Shown: positions 1 through 50,073, numbered from the stretch's first letter. The stretch: DNA of 64,000 bases from an uncultured Bacteroidales bacterium (GCA_963725785.1 CAVRZV010000016.1:251171-315170), one strand, 5' to 3'. The notes: generated by a model not told the origin, from the letters alone. Program-made: numbers and translations.

Positions 1-1
1 A

Positions 2-292
2 CATTCGGAAGCTGTAAATGTCGAGTTTGAAAAAGAATTCAAAATCGATGATGTGGTAAGATTAATAAATCAGTTCCCCGGGGTTGTGGTTTATGATAAT
101 CCGGCAGAGAACAAATATCCGATGCCGATTCTGGCGCATAACAGGGATGAGGTGTTTGTTGGAAGGATAAGGAGGGACTTTTCGAAAGAAAAATGTCTTA
201 ACCTCTGGATCGTATCAGATAATATCAGAAAAGGCGCAGCGACAAATGCGATTCAGATTGCAGAATATATGGCGGCTAATAAATTATATTAA
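2..292 (+). CDS. asd: aspartate-semialdehyde dehydrogenase, C-terminal fragment (5' end outside window)
   Basis: The frame is open from the window edge. The tail ...SDNIRKGAATNAIQIAEYMAANKLY is a typical Asd C-terminus. The ORF-track start at 53 is an internal GTG. Confidence 0.8.
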   Translation, partial: HSEAVNVEFEKEFKIDDVVRLINQFPGVVVYDNPAENKYPMPILAHNRDEVFVGRIRRDFSKEKCLNLWIVSDNIRKGAATNAIQIAEYMAANKLY

Positions 293-299
293 TCATATT

Positions 300-396
300 C
301 TCTGTGGTCCTCTGTGCCTCCTCTGTGATACTCAGTGTAAGTTCTTAAGAAATTGTTACACAGAGAGACACAGAGAAGACACAGAGCGTCACAGAG
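300..396. repeat. phased heptamer inverted-repeat element, copy A (CTCTGTG x4 / 21-nt loop / CACAGAG x4)
   Basis: CTCTGTG at 300, 310, 321 and CTCAGTG at 331. CACAGAG at 359, 369, 380, 390. Spacing is mirrored (10, 11, 10) and the central loop is 21 nt. It sits between the convergent 3' ends of asd and hflX. Confidence 0.85.
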
Positions 397-411
397 CTGT
401 CAGATAAATTA

Positions 412-1608
412 TTATTCAGTCTGATATAAGAAATCATTAAAAGGATACCTTTTTATATGTAACTTCTTTACTTCCTCATAAAGAAGCTTTCGGAGTTCTT
501 CAATATTTTCCTTAGTCTTTGCTGAAATAAATACAGTCGGGTGATACTTGTCCATCGACATCCAGGTTTTTTTCAAATCGGTTAAAGAATAATTATTCTT
601 CAAAACAGGAGTAAGATCATCCGCATCTTTGACTATATAAGTAAATGCATCGATCTTATTAAAAACCAGCATTAATGGTTTATCAGAGACGCCAAGGTCT
701 TTGAGAGTATTATTTACAACCCTGATCTGTTCTTCAAATGTTGAATGTGAGATATCAATGATGTGTACAAGTAAATCCGATTCTCTTACCTCATCCAGGG
801 TCGATTTGAACGATTCAATAAGGTCAGTAGGGAGTTTACGAATAAAACCGACAGTATCCGAAAGCAAAAACGGCAGGTTACCAATAACAACTTTCCTTAC
901 TGTAGTATCAAGTGTTGCAAAGAGTTTATCTTCTGCAAACACATCTGATTTGCTCAGGAGATTCATAACAGTCGATTTGCCGACATTCGTATAACCGACA
1001 AGAGCTACCCTTATCATTTTTCCACGGTTTTTCCTTTGGGTAATCATCTGGTTATCAATCTTTTTAAGCTGATCCTTAAGTAACGAAATTCTGTCCCTGA
1101 TGACTCTCCTGTCAGTCTCTATTTCAGTTTCACCCGGTCCTCTTAAACCAATACCTCCTCTTTGGCGCTCGAGATGTGTCCACATTCCTGTCAGTCGGGG
1201 AAGAAGGTACTGATACTGCGCCAATTCAACCTGTGTGCGAGCGTGAGAGGTGCGTGCCCGCCGTGCAAAGATATCAAGGATCAGATTTGTCCTGTCGAGA
1301 ATACGGCAACCAAGGGCTTCTTCGATGTTTCTTAACTGGCTGGGTGTCAGTTCATCGTCAAATATGGCAATATCAATTTTATTTTCAGTAACAAACGCGC
1401 CAAGCTCTTTTATCTTGCCTGATCCTACAAAAGTACGTGGATTTGGGACATCCAGCTTCTGGATAAATCTTTTAACAGGCTCTGCTCCGGCAGTCTCCGT
1501 CAGAAATGAGAGTTCTTCCAGGAAATCTTCGGCTTCACTTTCTTCCTGCCCGTGATATAATACCCCAATAAGAATTGCCCTTTCCGGGGGTTTATTTGTA
1601 TCGATCAT
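412..1608 (-). CDS. hflX: GTPase HflX
   Basis: 398 aa. It has the HflX N-terminal domain plus a G domain (GYTNVGKST, DTVGF, NKID). Confidence 0.9.
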   Translation of the reverse strand: MIDTNKPPERAILIGVLYHGQEESEAEDFLEELSFLTETAGAEPVKRFIQKLDVPNPRTFVGSGKIKELGAFVTENKIDIAIFDDELTPSQLRNIEEALGCRILDRTNLILDIFARRARTSHARTQVELAQYQYLLPRLTGMWTHLERQRGGIGLRGPGETEIETDRRVIRDRISLLKDQLKKIDNQMITQRKNRGKMIRVALVGYTNVGKSTVMNLLSKSDVFAEDKLFATLDTTVRKVVIGNLPFLLSDTVGFIRKLPTDLIESFKSTLDEVRESDLLVHIIDISHSTFEEQIRVVNNTLKDLGVSDKPLMLVFNKIDAFTYIVKDADDLTPVLKNNYSLTDLKKTWMSMDKYHPTVFISAKTKENIEELRKLLYEEVKKLHIKRYPFNDFLYQTE

Positions 1609-1654
1609 CTGCTATTAAATACAATAATTCTTCAATTGAGGATTTCTTAAAAAT

Positions 1655-1753
1655 CTTTGTGAACCTTTGTGTAAACCTTTGTGTACCTTAGTGGTAAAAG
1701 CTAATTCATTTAACCACAAAGTAACACAAAGTATAACACAAAGTAACACAAAG
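1655..1753. repeat. phased heptamer inverted-repeat element, copy B (CTTTGTG x4 / 21-nt loop / CACAAAG x4)
   Basis: CTTTGTG at 1655, 1665, 1677 and CTTAGTG at 1687. CACAAAG at 1715, 1725, 1737, 1747. Spacing is mirrored (10, 12, 10) with a 21-nt loop. It lies 47 nt upstream of the hflX start. Confidence 0.85.
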
Positions 1754-1830: not shown

Positions 1831-3003
1831 TTAATATATAAACCGCCTGTCATTCTGAATAGCTCCCCTGATTGCCCTTTTAAGCGATTCAGAACATCGC
1901 ATAATCATATCTATATCTGTTGGAAATGGAACGATTGATGTTTTAGTTCTCTCCAGCTGTGTTGCATTGAGAGCCTGGATATCACCAAGAGCACGTGAAG
2001 AGACGTTTTCAAAATTTGCCTGGGCTCCTATCGGATCCTTTGTCAGTGCTTTATTCGGGTTCACCTGGATCACTTCCACATCACCGTCTATGCGGCAAGC
2101 TTTTGATTGAATGGTTTCGACAAGAGCACATTGCACAGTTTTGTATTTTTTCTGTTTGATGTCATTCCCAAGAGAATCTCTCATTACATTGCCTTTCTTA
2201 TCCAGAACATAAGAAAAACCATCTTCAATATCCCTTTTAATAACGGAATCCCTTTGCACAGACTGATCGTTACTGACTGCAACATTTTTTATATTCACAT
2301 TTACAAAATAATCATACTGGGTCCTGCCATCCAAATTCTGTGTGTGAAATTCAACCCATTCCGAGTTCAGACGCGGCAGATCAAGAGCAAGAAGATCATC
2401 TTCGAACTCTCTGGGAAATTTCAGGATTGAACTATTCTGAATTGAGACAAATACCCTGCTCATTCCATTAAGTTTTGCCTCCTGTATTTTATTATCAATT
2501 CCCTCATAATCTCCGACATACTCTTTTGCCCTGACAAATTCTGCAAATGCCTGCCTGTAGGATTCTTTTAAGCCGCTCTTCATCAGTTCATTACCATGAG
2601 CAAAATAGAAATCTGCCGCTTTATGCTTTGCATTGATCATTTCAGGTAAATAATCGATATAAGAATAATTAATAGTTTTCCCGTTAAAATCTAACGGAGT
2701 TACAGTTCTTACAAGTGATTGTCTGTCGTTGAGCGCTTTATATACAAGATAAATCTCGTCCCAGTTATTTGGTTTACCTTCCAATTTCAGCATACGAACT
2801 CTTTCATTATCCTGGTCATTAGCAATTTTGTATGCCTGATCGAGAATATCTATCTGTTTGATATCAGTTTTATCTTTCCGCAGTTGTTTAACAGCTTTTT
2901 GGATAGCTGCATCATAGTTTCCTTTTACGAGTTGCTTCTTGGAAGAACCACAGCCCGACGCGATTAAGGTTAATACAAAAATTAAGGGTACAAGTTTTTT
3001 CAT
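1831..3003 (-). CDS. hypothetical lipoprotein
   Basis: 390-aa ORF with a signal peptide and lipobox (LTLIASGC). I did not recognise a family. Confidence 0.6.
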   Translation of the reverse strand: MKKLVPLIFVLTLIASGCGSSKKQLVKGNYDAAIQKAVKQLRKDKTDIKQIDILDQAYKIANDQDNERVRMLKLEGKPNNWDEIYLVYKALNDRQSLVRTVTPLDFNGKTINYSYIDYLPEMINAKHKAADFYFAHGNELMKSGLKESYRQAFAEFVRAKEYVGDYEGIDNKIQEAKLNGMSRVFVSIQNSSILKFPREFEDDLLALDLPRLNSEWVEFHTQNLDGRTQYDYFVNVNIKNVAVSNDQSVQRDSVIKRDIEDGFSYVLDKKGNVMRDSLGNDIKQKKYKTVQCALVETIQSKACRIDGDVEVIQVNPNKALTKDPIGAQANFENVSSRALGDIQALNATQLERTKTSIVPFPTDIDMIMRCSESLKRAIRGAIQNDRRFIY

Positions 3004-3940: not shown

Positions 3941-3984
3941 GAAGCCGGAAGCCGGAAGTCGGAAGTTTGACTTCTGACTTCTGT
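3941..3984. repeat. GAAGYCG heptamer tandem repeat folding onto ACTTCTGACTTC
   Basis: The sequence reads gaagccg gaagccg gaagtcg gaagt ttg acttc tgacttc tg. The arms pair with G:T wobbles. Confidence 0.6.
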
Positions 3985-4067: not shown

Positions 4068-4167
4068 GAGGTTGAGGCTGAGATTAAGGCTGAGGTTAAG
4101 GCTGAGGTTAAGGTTAAGGTTAAGGTTAAGGTTAAGGTTAAGGTTAAGGCTGGAGATTCTTAACCTT
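4068..4167. repeat. hexamer microsatellite (RAGGYT)14 with 6 perfect AAGGTT, plus a terminal hairpin
   Basis: There are 14 consecutive hexamers at 4068-4151, with perfect AAGGTT at 4110-4145. aaggttaag (4140-4148) pairs with cttaacctt (4159-4167). Confidence 0.85.
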
Positions 4168-4241
4168 TTCAACCCATTCAACTTTTCAACCCTTCACTAT
4201 ATTTTTATATTTCAATTTTTTCTTACATTTGACAACTCTTT

Positions 4242-4541: not shown

Positions 4542-7500
4542 ATGAGTGAAGAGATTTTAAAAGCGTTAATGGAGCTATTTGCCCTGATTGTAAAACAGGA
4601 CGGAGGAATACTTTTGAACGAACGTGAGTATGTTTCCGGTTTTCTGAACAAACAGCTTACCAAAGAAACCGTGGATGAATATCTGGCCTTATTTGATCAG
4701 CATGCCGGACAGGTTCTTCAAAGATCTGTTGTAAAAGAACTCTCCACACCATCTGTAAAAGACTCGGTTAAGATTCTGGGGATATGTAAAAAGATTAACC
4801 GCACTCTTAATCAGGAACAGAAAGTAGTTGTTCTGATGCGACTTTATGAACTGGTTAATACCGACAGGCAGTTCACTCCTCAGAGAATGAACATAATAAA
4901 TACTGTCGCAGAGGTTTTCAAAATATCTTCCGGAGAATTTGCAGCAACTGAACAGTTTGTTAAAAATGACAATCCGGAAGATCTCAGGAATCCTGCAATT
5001 CTTGTTCTAGCTCCCGGTGATGAAGAATGTGAATTGTGCAGAAGAATGAAAACCGGTTATCAGGACACAAGAATTTTCATTTTAAGAATTGCGAGTGTTG
5101 ACCTGTATTTTATCAGGTATATTTCAAAAGATCAGTTATATCTCAATGGCCTTCCGATAAGATCGGGCCAGGTGTACACATTTGCTAAAGGAGGTTCAAT
5201 AAAATCACAACAAGGACATTCAATTTACTACAGCGACATCAGTTCAAGTTTTCTTTCCGATATAATTATACATAAAATTTCATTCACAGTCGAAAATCTC
5301 TCCTATCATTTCAGAGAAGGCCATGCAGCAGTTGATAATGTAAGCTTTTCAATTGAGGAAGGAAAGCTAATTGGAATTATGGGAGCAAGCGGATCGGGAA
5401 AGACAACATTAATGAATCTGATGAGCGGTATTCAGAAACCTTCCTCGGGAAGTGTCAGGATTAACGGGTTGGATGTGGTAAGGGATAATATAAAACTTGA
5501 AGGCGTTTTTGGATATGTTCCTCAGGATGACCTGCTTATTGAAGATCTGACTGTATTTGAGAATCTGTTTTTTGCTGCCTGTCAATGCTTTAAAGATAAA
5601 TCAAGGGAGGAGATAACCTCACTTGTTGATCATACCCTTTCAAATCTGGGATTACTTGAAAAGAGAGGATTAAAAGTCGGATCACCCTTTAACAAAGTTA
5701 TAAGCGGAGGGCAGAGAAAAAGGTTGAATATTGCATTGGAACTTATAAGAGAACCATTGGTTTTGTTTCTCGATGAGCCAACTTCGGGCCTCTCTTCCAG
5801 AGATTCCGAAAACCTTATGGACCTTCTTCGCGACCTGACACTTAAGGGGAAACTGGTTTTTACGGTCATTCATCAGCCATCTTCTGAGATATTCAAAATG
5901 TTTGATAAGGTCATAATCCTCGATCAGGGTGGGTATATGGCATATTTTGGAAATCCGGTCGATTCAGTTATATACTTTAAGACTCTCGATGCGCAGATAA
6001 ACTCAAATCAGGGAGAGTGCCCGTCGTGTGGAAATGTAAATCCTGAAACTATCTTTAATATCATTGAAACCCAGGTTGTTGACGAGTTTGGAAAGTATAC
6101 TGAGAAGCGAAAAGTCAGGCCAAAGGAGTGGGCTAATACTTTTAGTTCGAAACATCCTTTTAAACGGGTACCTGAGATTCAGGAGCCACCTCATAAGAAT
6201 CTGCAGAGACCAGGTCTTTGGAAACAATTCCAGATTTATTTTTCCAGAGACTTAAAGAGTAAAATTTCCAACACACAATATGTCCTGCTCACTATTCTTG
6301 AGGCTCCCATCCTTGGATTTGTTCTTTCATTCATTATCAGGTACATACCCGATCCCGATTCCAAAATCTACATCTTTTCAGAAAATGAGAATATCCCGAT
6401 CTACATTTTCATGAGCCTGATCGTCGCTCTGTTCATTGGATTGACAATAAGTGCTGAGGAGATTTTCCGTGACAGAAAAATTCTGAAAAGAGAGCGTTTT
6501 CTTAACTTAAGCCGCAACAGCTATCTGCTTTCCAAGGTTGCAATTCTGGTCATGATATCTACAATCCAGACACTTCTTTTCGTTTTAATAGCAAATCCGA
6601 TCCTTGGAATAAAAGGCATGTATTTTAATTACTGGCTCGCTTTGTTTGCCACTGCATTTTGTGCTAACATGCTTGGGTTGAATATTTCAGCTTCATTTAA
6701 TTCCGCCATCACAATCTACATTGTTATTCCTCTTATGATAATACCAATGATGGTGCTTAGCGGAGCTATGTTTCCCTTTGACAAACTGAACAGAAGCATA
6801 GGCAATGTTGATAAAGTGCCCATTATTGCCGAATTAATGCCCACTCGGTGGACTTATGAAGCTCTTATTGTTTCTCAGTTTAAGGATAATAAATACAGTA
6901 AAACTCAATTTACAAAGGACGGTGAGACATACTACCAGCTTCAAAAGAAAATCAGTGAAGCTGACTTTAATAAGGTTCACCGGATTAAAGCATTACGGGA
7001 TGCTCTTGAGACTACTCTTTTCGAATACAGGAGTAACCCCAAAAATATTGTAAAAAGCGAGGTACCTGTTGTAAAGAAGTCGACACGCAGGTTCAGTAAG
7101 CTGCAGCTGCTGAAAAACGAACTGGAAAAGATGACTGCTGTCTATCATGTTCCTGCATTCACATATATTTCTGACCTGACACCTTATGAATTCAATCCCG
7201 GGATTGCAGATTCTCTATCATCTTACTTCAACAGAATGGACAGATTATTTAGCAAAATTTCAAATACAGCAAGCGACAGGAGGGATATTTTTTACAATAT
7301 GAATGATTTATTACTGAAGAAACTGGAGGATGATTATTATAATTATAAACTTCTAGAAATTGTTACAAAACCTTACGAAAGGAAGAAAATTCTTTTGTAT
7401 AATAACTCTCTTGTTCAAAATACTGATCCGATTTATCTTGATCCGTACAAGAGCGGTTTTCTTAATTTCAGAACACATTTTTATGCTCCGGCAAAATATA

Positions 7501-17402: not shown

Positions 17403-17469
17403 GGACACGCCATGGCGTGTCCCTACATCCAATCCAAATGTAGATGTAGGGTCATGCCATGGCATGACC
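17403..17469. repeat. compound palindromic element with two CCATGG-centred 20-nt perfect palindromes
   Basis: ggacacgccatggcgtgtcc (17403-17422), ctacatc ... gatgtag, then ggtcatgccatggcatgacc (17450-17469). Each 20-mer is a perfect palindrome, and the whole unit is an imperfect 67-nt inverted repeat. Confidence 0.85.
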
Positions 17470-29961: not shown

Positions 29962-31892
29962 ATGGACAGGGAAGAGAATTTACTCTCTAAAATATATACT
30001 CCTGATGATCTCAGGAAACTTACTCCGGACGATCTTGCGCAGGTGAGTAACGAACTCCGGCAGTTCATTATTGATGTTGTGTGCAATAATCCCGGCCATT
30101 TCGGAGCCAGTCTTGGAGTGGTTGAGTTGACTGTAGCTCTTCATTATGTATTTAATACTCCTTACGATAAAATCATATGGGATGTCGGGCATCAGGCCTA
30201 TGGACATAAGATTCTTACCGGAAGGCGCGAAAATTTCGCTACCAACAGAAAGTATAAAGGGATAAGCGGATTCCCAAAGATGGCTGAAAGTGAGTATGAT
30301 GCATTTGGCACCGGCCACTCTTCGACTTCAATTTCGGCCGCTCTCGGGATGGCTGTTGCTGCAGGGAGCAAAGGAGAGAACAGGCATGTTGTTGCAGTGA
30401 TTGGTGATGGAGCAATGACGGCAGGACAGGCATTTGAAGGTCTCAATAATGCAGGTATCGGCAAGTCAGATATCCTTGTGATCCTTAATGATAACAATAT
30501 TGCAATCGATGCTAATGTAGGTGCCCTGAAGGAATACCTTCTTGATATTACCACAAGCAAAACCTATAACAGGTTCAAGGACAGGGTATGGAAAATGCTC
30601 GGAATATTCGGAAAACTTGGTCCGAATGCCCGGACACTTGCTGCACAGCTTGAAGCAGGAGCCAAAAGCACAATACTCGACAGAAGCAATCTTTTTGAGG
30701 GTCTCAATTTCAGGTATTTCGGTCCGATCGACGGTCATGATGTCCTGCATCTGACAAGAGTTCTTGAGGATCTGAAGAGAAATTCCCGGACCAAAATTAC
30801 TTCATTGTCTTACGGTTAAAGGAAAGGGTTTCAAACAGGCTGAAGAGGATCAGACTACTTTCCATGCACCGGGAAGATTCAACAAAAAAACAGGTGAGAT
30901 AATCAAAACATCAGTTGAAGATTCTCCACCTCCTTACCAGGAGGTATTTGGAAATACTATTCTGGAACTTGCACGACTCAACGATAAGATAGTAGGTATA
31001 ACTCCGGCTATGCCAACAGGGTGTTCTCTCAATATTATGATGAAGGAGATGCCGGAAAGAACATTTGATGTGGGGATTGCGGAACAACATGCCGTGACTT
31101 TTTCTGCAGGACTTGCGACACAGGGTATGATCCCCTACTGCAATATCTATTCCTCATTTATACAGAGAGCTTACGACCAGATAATTCATGATGTTGCACT
31201 CCAGAATCTGCATGTTGTATTTTGTATCGACAGAGGAGGACTTGTCGGAGCCGATGGTGCCACACATCATGGATTTTTCGATATGGCATTTATGCGCAAT
31301 TCCCAATATGGTCGTCTCTGCCCCGATGGATGAGATTGAACTGAGGAATCTTATGTATACTGCTCAGCTTGAGAAAAACAAATTTCCATTTTCAATCCGT
31401 TATCCACGCGGCCGAGGTATATTTACCGACTGGAAAAAACCTTTCAGCGAGATTGAAATCGGAAAAGCCCGGCAGATAAGTGAAGGCAATGATCTGGCTA
31501 TGTTATCTATCGGCCATCCCGGAGTAGTTGTTTCTTCAGTTGTAAGTAAACTTTCAAAAGAAAATATTTCAGTTGCACATTTTGATATGCGGTTCGTTAC
31601 TCCTCTTGATAAGGATGTCCTTCATTCTGTATTTAAGAAATTCAAACATATAATCACTGTTGAGGATGGGATACTTAAAGGCGGATTCGGAAGTGCCGTT
31701 ATTGAATTTATGTGCGATAATGGGTACAACTCTGAGGTAAGGCGGCTCGGTATACCAGACTATTTTGTGGAGCACGGGACACAGGAAGAACTTTATCGGG
31801 AGTGCGGATTTGATGCTGAAGGGATTGAACTGGCGATAAGGGAAATACTTGTGAAAATGAAAGGGAGAAAGGGAGAAGGGGGGAATGGGTGA
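29962..31892 (+). pseudogene. dxs: 1-deoxy-D-xylulose-5-phosphate synthase, at least 2 frameshifts (possible sequencing artefact)
   Basis: MDREENLLSKI...GHSSTSISAALGMA...GDGAMTAGQAFE is in frame 1. [17 protein letters not shown]...[12 protein letters not shown]...[15 protein letters not shown] is in frame 2 from about 30782. [12 protein letters not shown]... to the end is in frame 0. Confidence 0.9.
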
Positions 31893-31962
31893 AGGGGAGA
31901 AAGGGTGACTGGGAGAGCTGGTATCTTAACGATCTTTGCGTAAAAACTTTGCGATCTTTGCG
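31863..31962. repeat. two adjacent direct-repeat arrays: GGGAGAR x4 then CTTTGCG x3
   Basis: GGGAGAA/G at 31863, 31871, 31895, 31911, overlapping the last dxs codons. CTTTGCG at 31934, 31947, 31956, with GATCTTTGCG occurring twice. Confidence 0.6.
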
Positions 31963-32004: not shown

Positions 32005-32088
32005 GCCCGGATGGCGGAATTGGTAGACGCGCTGGTCTCAAACACCAGTGGTAGCAATGCTGTGCCGGTTCGATCCCGGCTCCGGGTA
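32005..32088 (+). tRNA. tRNA-Leu (anticodon CAA)
   Basis: Acceptor GCCCGGA/TCCGGGT, anticodon stem-loop ctggt-CTCAAAC-accag, a long variable arm, and T-arm gccggTTCGATCccggc. Confidence 0.9.
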
Positions 32089-48679: not shown

Positions 48680-50026
48680 TTAATGAATATCTGATGCGCT
48701 CTGAATACCTTCCGCTACTTCAGGAATTATGCCCAGTTTAATATAGATTGGTCTTACAATCGTTCTGAGTTCAGGAAGTTTTCGTAAAAAGAAAAGAGCA
48801 CCTATAATGCAAGCTATACCACCTGTAAAGATTGTCCATGGTGTTCCGATAACCTTTGCCAATCCTCCTGCCATCAGGCTGCCGAACGGAGCTGTTCCCA
48901 TTATTGCCATTGTATAAAAGCTCATTACTCTTCCCCTTTTATCATCATCGGTTATTGTCTGAAGAATAGTATTGCTTGCAGCAGTTTGCATCATCATTCC
49001 AAGACCAATAAAGAGCATAAGCACCAATGAAAGGGAAAAGATCCTGGAAAATGATAATACAATCAGCCCGACTCCAAAAAGGATCGCTGAAGCAGGAACA
49101 ATTCTACCCAGTTTCAGAACTGATTCGCGCGAGGCCAGGAACAATGCCCCAAGGAGTGCACCAAACCCGGCAGCTCCCATAAGAAAACCATATGTGTTTG
49201 ATCCTCCATGCAGGATCTCTTTAGCAAAAACCGGCATCAGTACGGAATAGGACATACCCATCAGGCTTGAAATACTCAATAATATCAGGAGATGCCTGAT
49301 CGGTGCAAATCCAAATGCGTAACGAAGTCCTTCGCTAAGTTCATTTAATATCCGTTCATCCTTAATATGAGTTTCTTTAACATGTAACCTCATCATTAGC
49401 AAAGATATAATCACAAATATATAGCTAATGGCATTAATCAGAAAGCAGATACCTTCGCTTGTGGAAGCCAGCATTACACCAGCTATTGAAGGGCCAATTA
49501 GCCTGGCTCCGTTAAACATCAAAGAATTAAGAGCAATGGCATTACCCAGATCTTCCTTCTTCTCAACCATGTCTATTACAAATGAGTGCCGCGCTGGTAC
49601 ATCAAATGCGTTGATGCAACCAAGAATAATACTTAAAACTACTATGTGCCAGATTTGTATAACTCCCGTCAGACAAAGACCGGCGAGAACAGCTGCCTGA
49701 ACCAACGAAACGATCTGTGTAATAAGCAATACCCGATATCTGCTCCACCGGTCAGTAAGCACCCCTGCAACAGGTGAAAGCAGAAAAGTTGGTATCTGTC
49801 CCGCAAAACCCACAACTCCTAAAAGAAGCGTGGATCCGGTCATATGATAAACAAGCCATGGCAATGCAATCCTCTGCATCCATGTGCCGATAAGCGAAAT
49901 ACTTTGTCCGCTGAAAAAGAGCCTGTAATTCCTGTATTGAAGCGAACGGAATACTATTTTGAATCTGCCCCTGCCATTCCCGGGCCCATCCTTATTCATC
50001 AGTTTTTTCCATAAATGTAAGGACAT
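48680..50026 (-). CDS. MFS transporter (MFS_3 / EntS-like)
   Basis: About 12 TM segments, with FRSLQYRNYRLFFSGQSISLIGTWMQ typical of the family. The ATG at 50026 lies inside a palindrome, so the start may instead be M10 at 49999. Confidence 0.8.
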   Translation of the reverse strand: MSLHLWKKLMNKDGPGNGRGRFKIVFRSLQYRNYRLFFSGQSISLIGTWMQRIALPWLVYHMTGSTLLLGVVGFAGQIPTFLLSPVAGVLTDRWSRYRVLLITQIVSLVQAAVLAGLCLTGVIQIWHIVVLSIILGCINAFDVPARHSFVIDMVEKKEDLGNAIALNSLMFNGARLIGPSIAGVMLASTSEGICFLINAISYIFVIISLLMMRLHVKETHIKDERILNELSEGLRYAFGFAPIRHLLILLSISSLMGMSYSVLMPVFAKEILHGGSNTYGFLMGAAGFGALLGALFLASRESVLKLGRIVPASAILFGVGLIVLSFSRIFSLSLVLMLFIGLGMMMQTAASNTILQTITDDDKRGRVMSFYTMAIMGTAPFGSLMAGGLAKVIGTPWTIFTGGIACIIGALFFLRKLPELRTIVRPIYIKLGIIPEVAEGIQSASDIH

Positions 50027-50045
50027 GCCATGGCATGTCCCTACA
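50021..50045. repeat. CCATGG-centred 20-nt perfect palindrome plus CTACA (same family as 17403-17469)
   Basis: ggacatgccatggcatgtcc is flanked by tgtaag and ctaca, giving a near-perfect 30-nt palindrome. Confidence 0.85.
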
Positions 50046-50073
50046 ATTTCCCAAAAAAATTACAAAATATGTA

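Follow-up and report, generated by a model that had tools for sequence, protein, structure and literature searches.

Two segmented hairpin elements beside hflX in an uncultured Bacteroidales bacterium and their apparent membership in a widespread intergenic heptamer-array family

Results

Organisation of the hflX locus

The stretch analysed here (the window, 64,000 nt) stems from an uncultured Bacteroidales bacterium whose relatives are numerous in metagenomes, and contains hflX on its minus strand at 412..1608, annotated in the source as 'GTPase HflX' and recognised by the Pfam domains GTP-bdg_N/M and MMR_HSR1. Convergent with it runs the 3' end of an aspartate-semialdehyde dehydrogenase-like (asd-like) gene (1..292, plus strand), whose syntenic counterpart in the relative L001 possesses Semialdhyde_dh/Semialdhyde_dhC domains, and on the other side follows a 390-aa ORF with a lipoprotein-like N-terminus (1831..3003, minus strand), likewise syntenic in L001. 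Element A (300..396, minus strand) is located between the convergent hflX and asd-like genes and is composed of arms at 300-338 and 359-396 around a loop of about 21 nt (339-358). Element B (1655..1753, minus strand) is situated between the 390-aa ORF and hflX, with arms at 1655-1693 and 1715-1753 and a loop of 21 nt (1694-1714). In hflX sense the 390-aa gene comes first, separated by 77 nt from B, which in turn lies 46 nt ahead of the hflX start codon; 15 nt past the hflX stop codon follows A, and then the convergent asd end.

Both elements display four direct heptamers, the loop and four inverted heptamers. On the plus strand the left arm of A reads CTCTGTG three times and then CTCAGTG, with the spacers gtc, cctc and ata, and its right arm CACAGAG four times, with aga, aaga and cgt; the left arm of B contains three CTTTGTG and a final CTTAGTG (spacers aac, taaac, tac) and its right arm four CACAAAG (taa, tataa, taa). 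Spacer lengths are mirrored between the arms, 3/4/3 facing 3/4/3 in A and 3/5/3 facing 3/5/3 in B, and in the heptamer arrays one strand is devoid of A and the other of T. An inverted-repeat search returned arms of 41 nt (A) and 45 nt (B) with a complementarity of 78%. Adjacent heptamer pairs of the form CACANAG-N3-6-CACANAG occurred ten times in the 64-kb window, all within A and B, as opposed to 0.02 in shuffles, and a k-mer chain scan over the whole 64 kb revealed no CTNTGTG array beyond these two. The architecture of A and B is far beyond chance, and the common 4+4 layout, 21-nt loop and mirrored spacers are as given in the preliminary description. The same orientation, which had also been ascribed to the two elements, is defined by the odd heptamer only, because an array of CTYTGTG words (L) followed by one of CACARAG words (R) reads L...R on both strands; the T-to-A change shared by these odd heptamers is conserved in the orthologues of B, but not in the A orthologues of L016, L030, L042 and L054.

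A and B fold as four 7-bp helices with symmetric internal loops, at z-scores of -5.3 to -7.6 against shuffles. The minus strand, which is the hflX-sense strand, gives the more stable fold for both, with -53.7 kcal/mol versus -44.1 on the plus strand for A and -42.4 kcal/mol versus -36.2 for B. Measured against an intrinsic terminator, the -42.4 kcal/mol hairpin of B is followed immediately 3' in hflX sense by a T-run (1649..1653, ATTTTT on the minus strand), whereas neither strand of A shows a U-run in the window. A terminator scanner that accepts loops of 3-8 nt only flagged neither A nor B nor the hairpins of relatives described below. With Rfam 15 at the gathering threshold the window yielded two tRNAs only, and at E<=10 the region 250-1850 gave nothing but sub-threshold noise from miRNA-precursor hairpins.

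A third hairpin of the same principle, with 3+3 units, a period of 10 and the word CGCAGAT/ATCTGCG, was found at 61163..61227 (plus strand), beginning 22 nt past the ORF at 59495..61141. Upstream of a tRNA gene lies a half-array of three CTTTGCG followed by GTTAAT (31934..31962, plus strand) without an inverted arm, and the same half-array recurs upstream of hflX in the relatives L018-L021. Truly contiguous heptads are present elsewhere in the window, at 3941-3983, and many other short tandem words populate the intergenic regions of this Bacteroidales lineage.

Base pairing and strand asymmetry

Pairing was examined in an alignment of 11 L..R copies from Bacteroidales and one Ignavibacteria MAG. 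Standard pairs filled 92.8% of the cells, compared to 30-67% when the partner was slid by 1-3 columns; none of 500 shuffles matched the observed pairing or covariation score, and RNAalifold recovered the four 7-bp helices unaided, the same helices as had been proposed for the arms at the outset. The compensation in all four opposing repeats, which had been put forward along with them, has to be read differently. All 16 double-change cells (16/16) fall on heptamer position 3, where the A-word differs from the B-word, and the 'covariation' between A and B is one word polymorphism (Y, a single C/T difference) repeated eight times, not a set of eight, or per arm four, independent compensations.

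On the sense strand 12 U·G/G·U cells were counted in the 11-copy alignment, and at the hflX loci nine wobble cells were found in sense and none in antisense, representing about five independent events. In CUUUGUG/CACAAAG a transition keeps pairing at six of seven positions of the A/C-rich arm and at only one position of the U/G-rich arm; since the former tolerates transitions and the latter scarcely does, wobble drift confined to one arm is expected from RNA pairing, but not from duplex DNA sites or a DNA cruciform. For A and for all B copies the hflX-sense strand gave the better fold. Where hairpin copies lie between co-directional genes, the sense fold was better in 25 cases, the antisense fold in 6, with 4 ties (17 versus 6 outside the hflX loci), although these counts are small and partly non-independent, because some events are common to orthologues and a single phage contig contributes four of the cases. 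Mirrored spacers were also seen in unrelated copies, 4/2/1 facing 1/2/4 in L092 and L181 and 5/2/1 facing 1/2/5 in L104. What characterises a structured RNA hairpin, wobble or compensatory pairing together with a bias to one strand, was found, and the wobble-preserving drift and the better sense-strand fold point, as far as sequence comparison can tell, to a transcribed RNA hairpin for A and B.

The same locus in relatives

Eighty-seven loci around hflX orthologues with 77-94% protein identity were compared. Orthologues of B were restricted to the closest clade (L001-3/5, L010, L013, L015, L024, L085). Their 5' arm in hflX sense stays CTTTGTG in all four units, whereas the 3' arm has drifted to CACGAAG, CACAGAG, CACAAGG and TACAAAG, transitions by which U·G/G·U pairs are retained on the hflX-sense strand alone. 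The innermost CACTAAG, which causes a U·U mismatch, is kept among them, and in L024 it lies opposite CTTAGTG, so that the conserved mismatch becomes a compensated A-U pair. Directly after B the orthologues display GG(G)TTTTTT. In farther relatives the slot of B is occupied by an ordinary GC hairpin with a T-run, ending 14-45 nt before the hflX ATG (e.g., GAGACGGGCAATTTGCCCGTCTC TGCTTTT; ATGCCGCAAA..TTTGCGGCAT AATTTTTT), and in still others by hairpins built from different tandem words, including CGGAAGA and GTTGCAA. A hairpin with T-run upstream of hflX is nearly universal among the relatives, and because its distance to the ATG is too short for a promoter, hflX is probably transcribed through this structured leader in the whole lineage.

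A-type copies, either 4+4 or truncated, were detected between hflX and asd in L016/17, L025, L030, L042, L046, L052 and L054, and are kept at this locus down to 79% HflX identity (L054). CACGGAG was found as an A-type substitution of the same wobble-retaining kind, the copy of L025 is of the form 4+2 and ends in TTTTTT, and a T-run also follows the A-type copy of L116. Other relatives have an unrelated C/G-run palindrome in the hflX/asd spacer or, in L010, L026 and L028, an empty site, where the stop codons of hflX and asd are 4-8 nt apart without a recognisable excision or insertion footprint. A is the older element and is absent from some lineages. The A loop occurs in both orientations relative to hflX, one shared by the window and L042, the other by L016, L030 and L054, and its sequence therefore cannot be read strand-specifically.

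The 4+4 layout is kept in close relatives, as had been anticipated, with a heptamer number that varies from copy to copy (4+4, 4+2, 3+4, 2+4) and with tiny palindromes nested within the copies of L024, L030, L035 and L054. Copies at other positions were encountered in L035, L030, L036, L049, L116, L126 and L196, and reversed-order (R..L) copies both upstream (L023, L030) and downstream (L036, L049) of hflX. In none of the 87 hflX loci did an A-type and a B-type copy occur together. The bracketing of hflX by two such elements, the feature under which they were first described, is thus incidental; in L035 a B-type copy even stands on the downstream side of hflX, and in other relatives the slots are taken by unrelated hairpins or are empty.

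Distribution of the array family

When one genome per species was searched with CACANAG-N2-5-CACANAG-N2-5-CACANAG, at least 120 matches were obtained. Among the matches listed are members of Planctomycetota, Acidobacteriota (many Pyrinomonadaceae), Chloroflexota, Desulfobacterota, Verrucomicrobiota, Ignavibacteria, Cloacimonadota, Cyanobacteria, Beta- and Gammaproteobacteria and several Bacteroidota, with the isolates Labilibaculum, Alkalitalea and Flavobacterium, as well as one archaeon. In IMG/VR three CACAGAG-NN units were present in at least 120 contigs, compared to 25 for a permuted control word. Far from being rare, the family is distributed over many phyla and phages in these genomes and viral contigs.

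The consensus in L orientation comprises a T-rich 5' flank, (CTCTGTG-YY)x2-CTCTGTG, the flank G-Y-D-A-A-W and a T-rich stretch; three heptamers with 2-nt spacers are typical, and the flank G is conserved at 79-88%. Heptamer position 3 is polymorphic (C/T) throughout the family, with mixed arrays elsewhere. Spacers of 2 nt, equivalent to a period of 9, made up 218 of 302 cases among the genome matches listed, in a scan that allowed 2-5 nt. The spacing of about one helical turn noted for A and B is correct for the window, but local to its lineage, and a helically phased binding array was rejected, as a period of 10-12 in the window is confronted with 9 in most family spacers. A peptide-coding reading of the 9-nt period (e.g., LCV LCV LCG stop) was likewise abandoned, because the 10-12 period of the window does not fit a triplet frame, spacers of 4/2/1 are found and the arrays lack a conserved start codon. 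The flank was considered as a sigma-70, extended -10 or ECF promoter and dismissed, since the -11 A is missing and the arrays are too near to start codons, and a resemblance to DnaA boxes (TTAACCACA) was ruled out by copy number and context.

Arrays are found singly or as inverted pairs, in which R..L order (loops of 6-160 nt) is commoner than the L..R order of the window; upstream of about one third of the 'single' L arrays there is a degenerate R partner. A 4+4 L..R layout occurs in some Pyrinomonadaceae copies, whose 4/2/1 and 1/2/4 or 5/2/1 and 1/2/5 spacers are mirrored and complementary, and some genomes contain several copies per few kb (L181, L113, L130). Single arrays of either orientation precede start codons by 10-50 nt, and arrays within ORFs occupy the C-terminal tail, just ahead of the start of the next gene. 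The R arrays of L231 are positioned 11-24 nt upstream of start codons and overlap the tail of the preceding ORF. L248, a real phage contig with head-closure and virion proteins, shows an R..L hairpin 12-24 nt past successive stop codons and extra L arrays just before the next ATG. With GAGG every 9 nt in R arrays and CCUC in L arrays, Shine-Dalgarno and anti-Shine-Dalgarno sequences are mimicked. A published primer contains an R array, CACCACAGAGAACACAGAGTT, at the end of a fragment from upstream of B. fragilis BF2782 (PMC3090145). Two Desulfobacterota loci, which probably represent a single orthologous site, have SelB beside the arrays.

In Rfam, 15 carrier loci from other phyla and phages matched tRNA and tmRNA only. 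Apart from chance matches, BLAST of the array against GenBank phages returned just four small faecal phage records, all unannotated. Searches of the literature with sequence strings led to primers and eukaryotic matches only, and no description of the heptamer-array family was found in the literature searched, in agreement with the initial assessment, in which the elements were not recognised as a described class. On these comparisons A and B are local copies of a widespread and apparently uncatalogued intergenic CTYTGTG/CACARAG repeat family.

Discussion

The reading preferred here, to which we give about an even chance, treats A and B as segmented hairpins in transcribed RNA and as members of a dispersed REP-like family, with B as a leaky terminator or attenuator and A as a shared 3' hairpin. 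Both would be transcribed together with hflX on the minus strand of the window and fold as long segmented hairpins. B would then terminate or attenuate transcription between the 390-aa gene and hflX as a leaky intrinsic signal, and at the same time form a 5' structure on the hflX message; its place in the slot where relatives have a hairpin with U-run, and the T-runs directly behind its orthologues, argue for this role. B cannot be a complete stop, as its short distance to the hflX ATG leaves no room for a promoter. A may constitute a 3'-end hairpin common to the convergent hflX and asd, either as a terminator or as a block to 3' exonucleases by which the messages would be stabilised. A terminator function is also suggested by the T-runs after the A-type copies of L025 and L116 and by the R..L hairpins after successive stops in L248. 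The uniform word within each copy is best accounted for by tandem duplication together with homogenisation between the arms, or by a factor that would read the word.

RNA structure alone does not account for the same heptamer and G-Y-D-A-A flank in Bacteroidota, Planctomycetota, Acidobacteriota, Chloroflexota, an archaeon and phages, nor for single arrays 10-50 nt before start codons in either orientation. A further-reaching proposal, tentative and in our view rather doubtful, is that (CTCTGTG-NN)x3 with G-Y-D-A-A and its complement represent a pan-prokaryotic cis module, also borne by phages, that a conserved cellular factor would recognise, the candidates being a Csp-, S1- or RRM-like RNA-binding protein or the ribosome itself. 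Single arrays before start codons and inverted pairs after stops would in that case set translation and transcript boundaries, and the 4+4 hairpins of the window would be a form adapted to Bacteroidales. Should the preferred reading hold, a simple, easily searchable module would mark the borders of genes in many little-studied phyla and in their phages, and the prediction of terminators and operons could be improved in Bacteroidota and in groups with weak canonical signals. It also raises the question which factor reads CTCTGTG/CACAGAG, for which Bacteroides fragilis, Labilibaculum and Alkalitalea offer themselves as carriers that can be cultivated.

Conservation of word and flank across phyla might also be understood at the level of DNA, with the arrays as binding sites of a sequence-specific protein (candidates are a transposase or recombinase with end-binding sites, a transcription factor or a nucleoid protein), the arms as symmetric half-sites and the hairpin potential as a by-product. 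The much rarer permuted control word (25 viral contigs against at least 120), the partnerless single arrays in both orientations relative to genes, the likeness of inverted arrays with outermost G-Y-D-A-A to transposon ends with subterminal repeats and the 10-12 bp period of the window, which would place the sites on one helix face, all fit such an explanation. We nevertheless regard it as unlikely: the usual period of 9 bp is not a helical turn, spacer lengths are mirrored between the arms, and a wobble-compatible, strand-specific drift with one arm frozen is unexpected for duplex DNA sites. Moreover, 14 clean R..L copies were free of target-site duplications, and beside the arrays no transposase, integrase or other protein family recurred in the 120 genome loci listed, where only generic families were encountered.

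Improbable to a similar degree is a purely selfish or neutral origin, by which miniature palindromes, or products of slippage and homogenisation, would accumulate in permissive intergenic spots without host function. Such an origin would explain why presence and absence vary among close relatives, down to a spacer of 4-8 nt in L010, L026 and L028, why the heptamer number fluctuates between 4+4, 4+2, 3+4 and 2+4, why the loop is flipped between lineages and why mini-palindromes are nested in the copies of L024, L030, L035 and L054, in a lineage whose intergenic regions are rich in other short tandem words. It is at odds with the persistence of A-type copies in place in relatives with as little as 79% HflX identity (L054), with substitutions that preserve pairing on one strand, with the replacement of a canonical terminator by B in a conserved slot, with a flank and word conserved across domains and with the lack of a mobility signature in the 14 R..L copies in which target-site duplications were sought. 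A transcribed RNA hairpin, a DNA binding site and a selfish repeat are not mutually exclusive, and REPs are mobile as well as co-opted.

An hflX-specific regulatory pair, such as a leader attenuator and a 3' partner that pair mutually or sense the state of the ribosome, would suit the position of A and B on either side of hflX in the window and the nearly universal promoter-excluding hairpin with T-run upstream of hflX in relatives, but is highly improbable, as no sampled relative combines both types, the same elements stand beside unrelated genes and in phages, A and B are both L..R with a mutual complementarity no better than with themselves, and no leader peptide is conserved (the 13-codon ORF of the window is lost in L010).

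Comparison with known systems

Several systems share short repeats or palindromes with the array family. Iterons, parC-type centromeres, OmpR/PhoB repeats and omega heptads also consist of short regular direct repeats, sometimes in two opposed blocks, whereas the arrays are chromosomal, dispersed and high-copy, with a typical period of 9 bp and arms that evolve as RNA pairs. With regard to MITEs, inverted arrays are present and empty hflX/asd sites exist in L010, L026 and L028, with no target-site duplication seen in the 14 clean R..L copies. Integron attC sites are approached by copies of the form TTAAC-R...L-GTTAA, which resemble R''(RYYYAAC)...R'(GTTRRRY) around an imperfect palindrome between genes; however, the commonest family ends TTCAC/GTGAA and TTAGC/GCTAA break the GTT core, and the order in the window is opposite, with the GTTAA-like sequence at the loop side. 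An attC identity was rejected on these grounds, and neither an integrase nor a cassette array was seen near arrays in the 120 genome loci listed. Like intrinsic terminators, B and its orthologues and some A-type copies offer a hairpin followed by a U-run, in B in the slot of a canonical terminator; unlike them, the stem of A and B extends over about 40 nt per arm, is AU-rich and is interrupted by internal loops of 3x3 to 5x5, and the loop measures 21 nt.

REPs are short, high-copy intergenic imperfect palindromes, located mostly at gene ends and between convergent genes, and are thought to serve as RNA 3' hairpins or terminators. The array family agrees with them in being short, high-copy, intergenic and imperfectly palindromic, in its preference for gene ends and convergent genes, in a sequence specific to the family and in the occurrence of several copies per few kb in some genomes. 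It departs from REP, BIME and REPIN repetitive extragenic palindromes (PMC3116915, PMC3733652) in its heptamer-array arms with mirrored spacers, in half-elements that occur alone and in the same word across phyla, REPs being species-specific. A RAYT-mobilised REP/REPIN head was rejected, because the T-rich/CTYTGTG side lies outside and G-Y-D-A-A at the other end, without GTAG or CGTC, and no RAYT gene was seen near arrays in the 8-kb loci and the 64-kb window.

The nearest published systems found are the TAACTGA repeats of Beggiatoaceae, Cyanobacteria and Bacteroidetes (PMC4679880) and the heptamer direct repeats of Nostoc (bioRxiv 10.1101/2022.06.06.494920), both contiguous, for which S1, Csp and CsrA have been proposed as binding partners (PMC4679880; bioRxiv 10.1101/2022.06.06.494920). 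In common with the array family they have a heptamer unit, an intergenic position, often immediately ahead of start codons, and a patchy distribution over multiple phyla including Bacteroidetes. An assignment to contiguous heptamer repeats of the STRR or TAACTGA type was rejected in view of the spacers of 2-5 nt and the inverted partner array. TAACTGA and Nostoc repeats have a period of 7 and other words and are essentially never inverted, whereas the array family is distinguished by a period of 9-12, the G-Y-D-A-A flank and usually an inverted partner with which a hairpin is formed.

The hflX spacers in relatives

In many relatives with an intergenic spacer before hflX, about 25 of the loci examined around hflX orthologues (L008-L087), a hairpin followed by a T-run ends 14-45 nt before the hflX ATG. 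As this distance leaves no room for a promoter, transcription of hflX in these relatives appears to pass through an attenuator-like structure. Arrays of CGGAAGA, GTAAGTA, GTTGCAA and GCTTCAG lie in this upstream spacer in relatives. Downstream of hflX, the spacer towards the convergent asd-like gene is filled in many relatives by a palindromic element with C/G-runs (GCCCCCCTGCCCCCCTAAAGGGGGG ... CCCCCCTTTAGGGGGGCAGGGGGGC), located at 2690-2950 in L001 and also present in L009, L014, L018, L022-24, L026, L030, L056-59 and L074-79.

Tiny perfect palindromes (CCCGAGTACTCGGG, CCGATAGCTATCGG, CCCGATAACTATCGGG, GCCTTC..GAAGGC) are inserted in loops or spacers of heptamer hairpins in L024 (1240-1265), L030 (3230-3250), L035 (2630-2650) and L054 (1345-1370), by which an internal loop is turned into a side hairpin.

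Other repeats in the window

A 3+3 hairpin of 10-nt units (61163-61227) shares its building principle with A (300-396) and B (1655-1753), the two heptamer hairpins on either side of hflX, and is built from a word unlike theirs, CGCAGAT/ATCTGCG. Beginning 22 nt beyond the ORF 59495..61141, this hairpin has a 4-nt loop; a T-run precedes it, and 'aaacctttt' follows it.

Further intergenic tandem words lie at 3941-3983, 4069-4158, 4165-4196 and 31859-31916. The first comprises contiguous heptads GAAGCCG/GAAGTCG opposite inverted ACTTCTG, with pairing via G·U on the + strand only; the remaining words are AGGTTA (x13), TTCAACCC (x3.5) and GAAAGGGA (x7). The palindromic repeat GGACA(C/T)GCCATGGC(G/A)TGTCCCTACA, present in two copies (17403-17469, 50003-50058), looks like a REP-like family of its own.

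Distant arrays and comparison with promoters

In two Desulfobacterota MAGs an array of CTYTGTG heptamers (L090, 4126-4200; L102, 459-483) immediately precedes a gene for a SelB-like translational GTPase (MILGTAGHIDHGKTTL...), probably as a single conserved orthologous site. An archaeal MAG (Ca. Ethanoperedens, L182) carries two array copies with identical 5' flanks (2508-2584, 6634-6659), so that either the heptamer word family spans the boundary between bacteria and archaea or this contig was mis-binned.

Upstream of the tRNA gene at 32005-32088, a half-array of CTTTGCG (x3) followed by GTTAAT (31934-31962) has no inverted arm; the same half-array is present upstream of hflX in L018-L021. Bacteroidetes promoters have a consensus of -33/-7 elements, and the last TTTG of the window's half-array, a 19-nt gap and then TATTTTCG fit this spacing.
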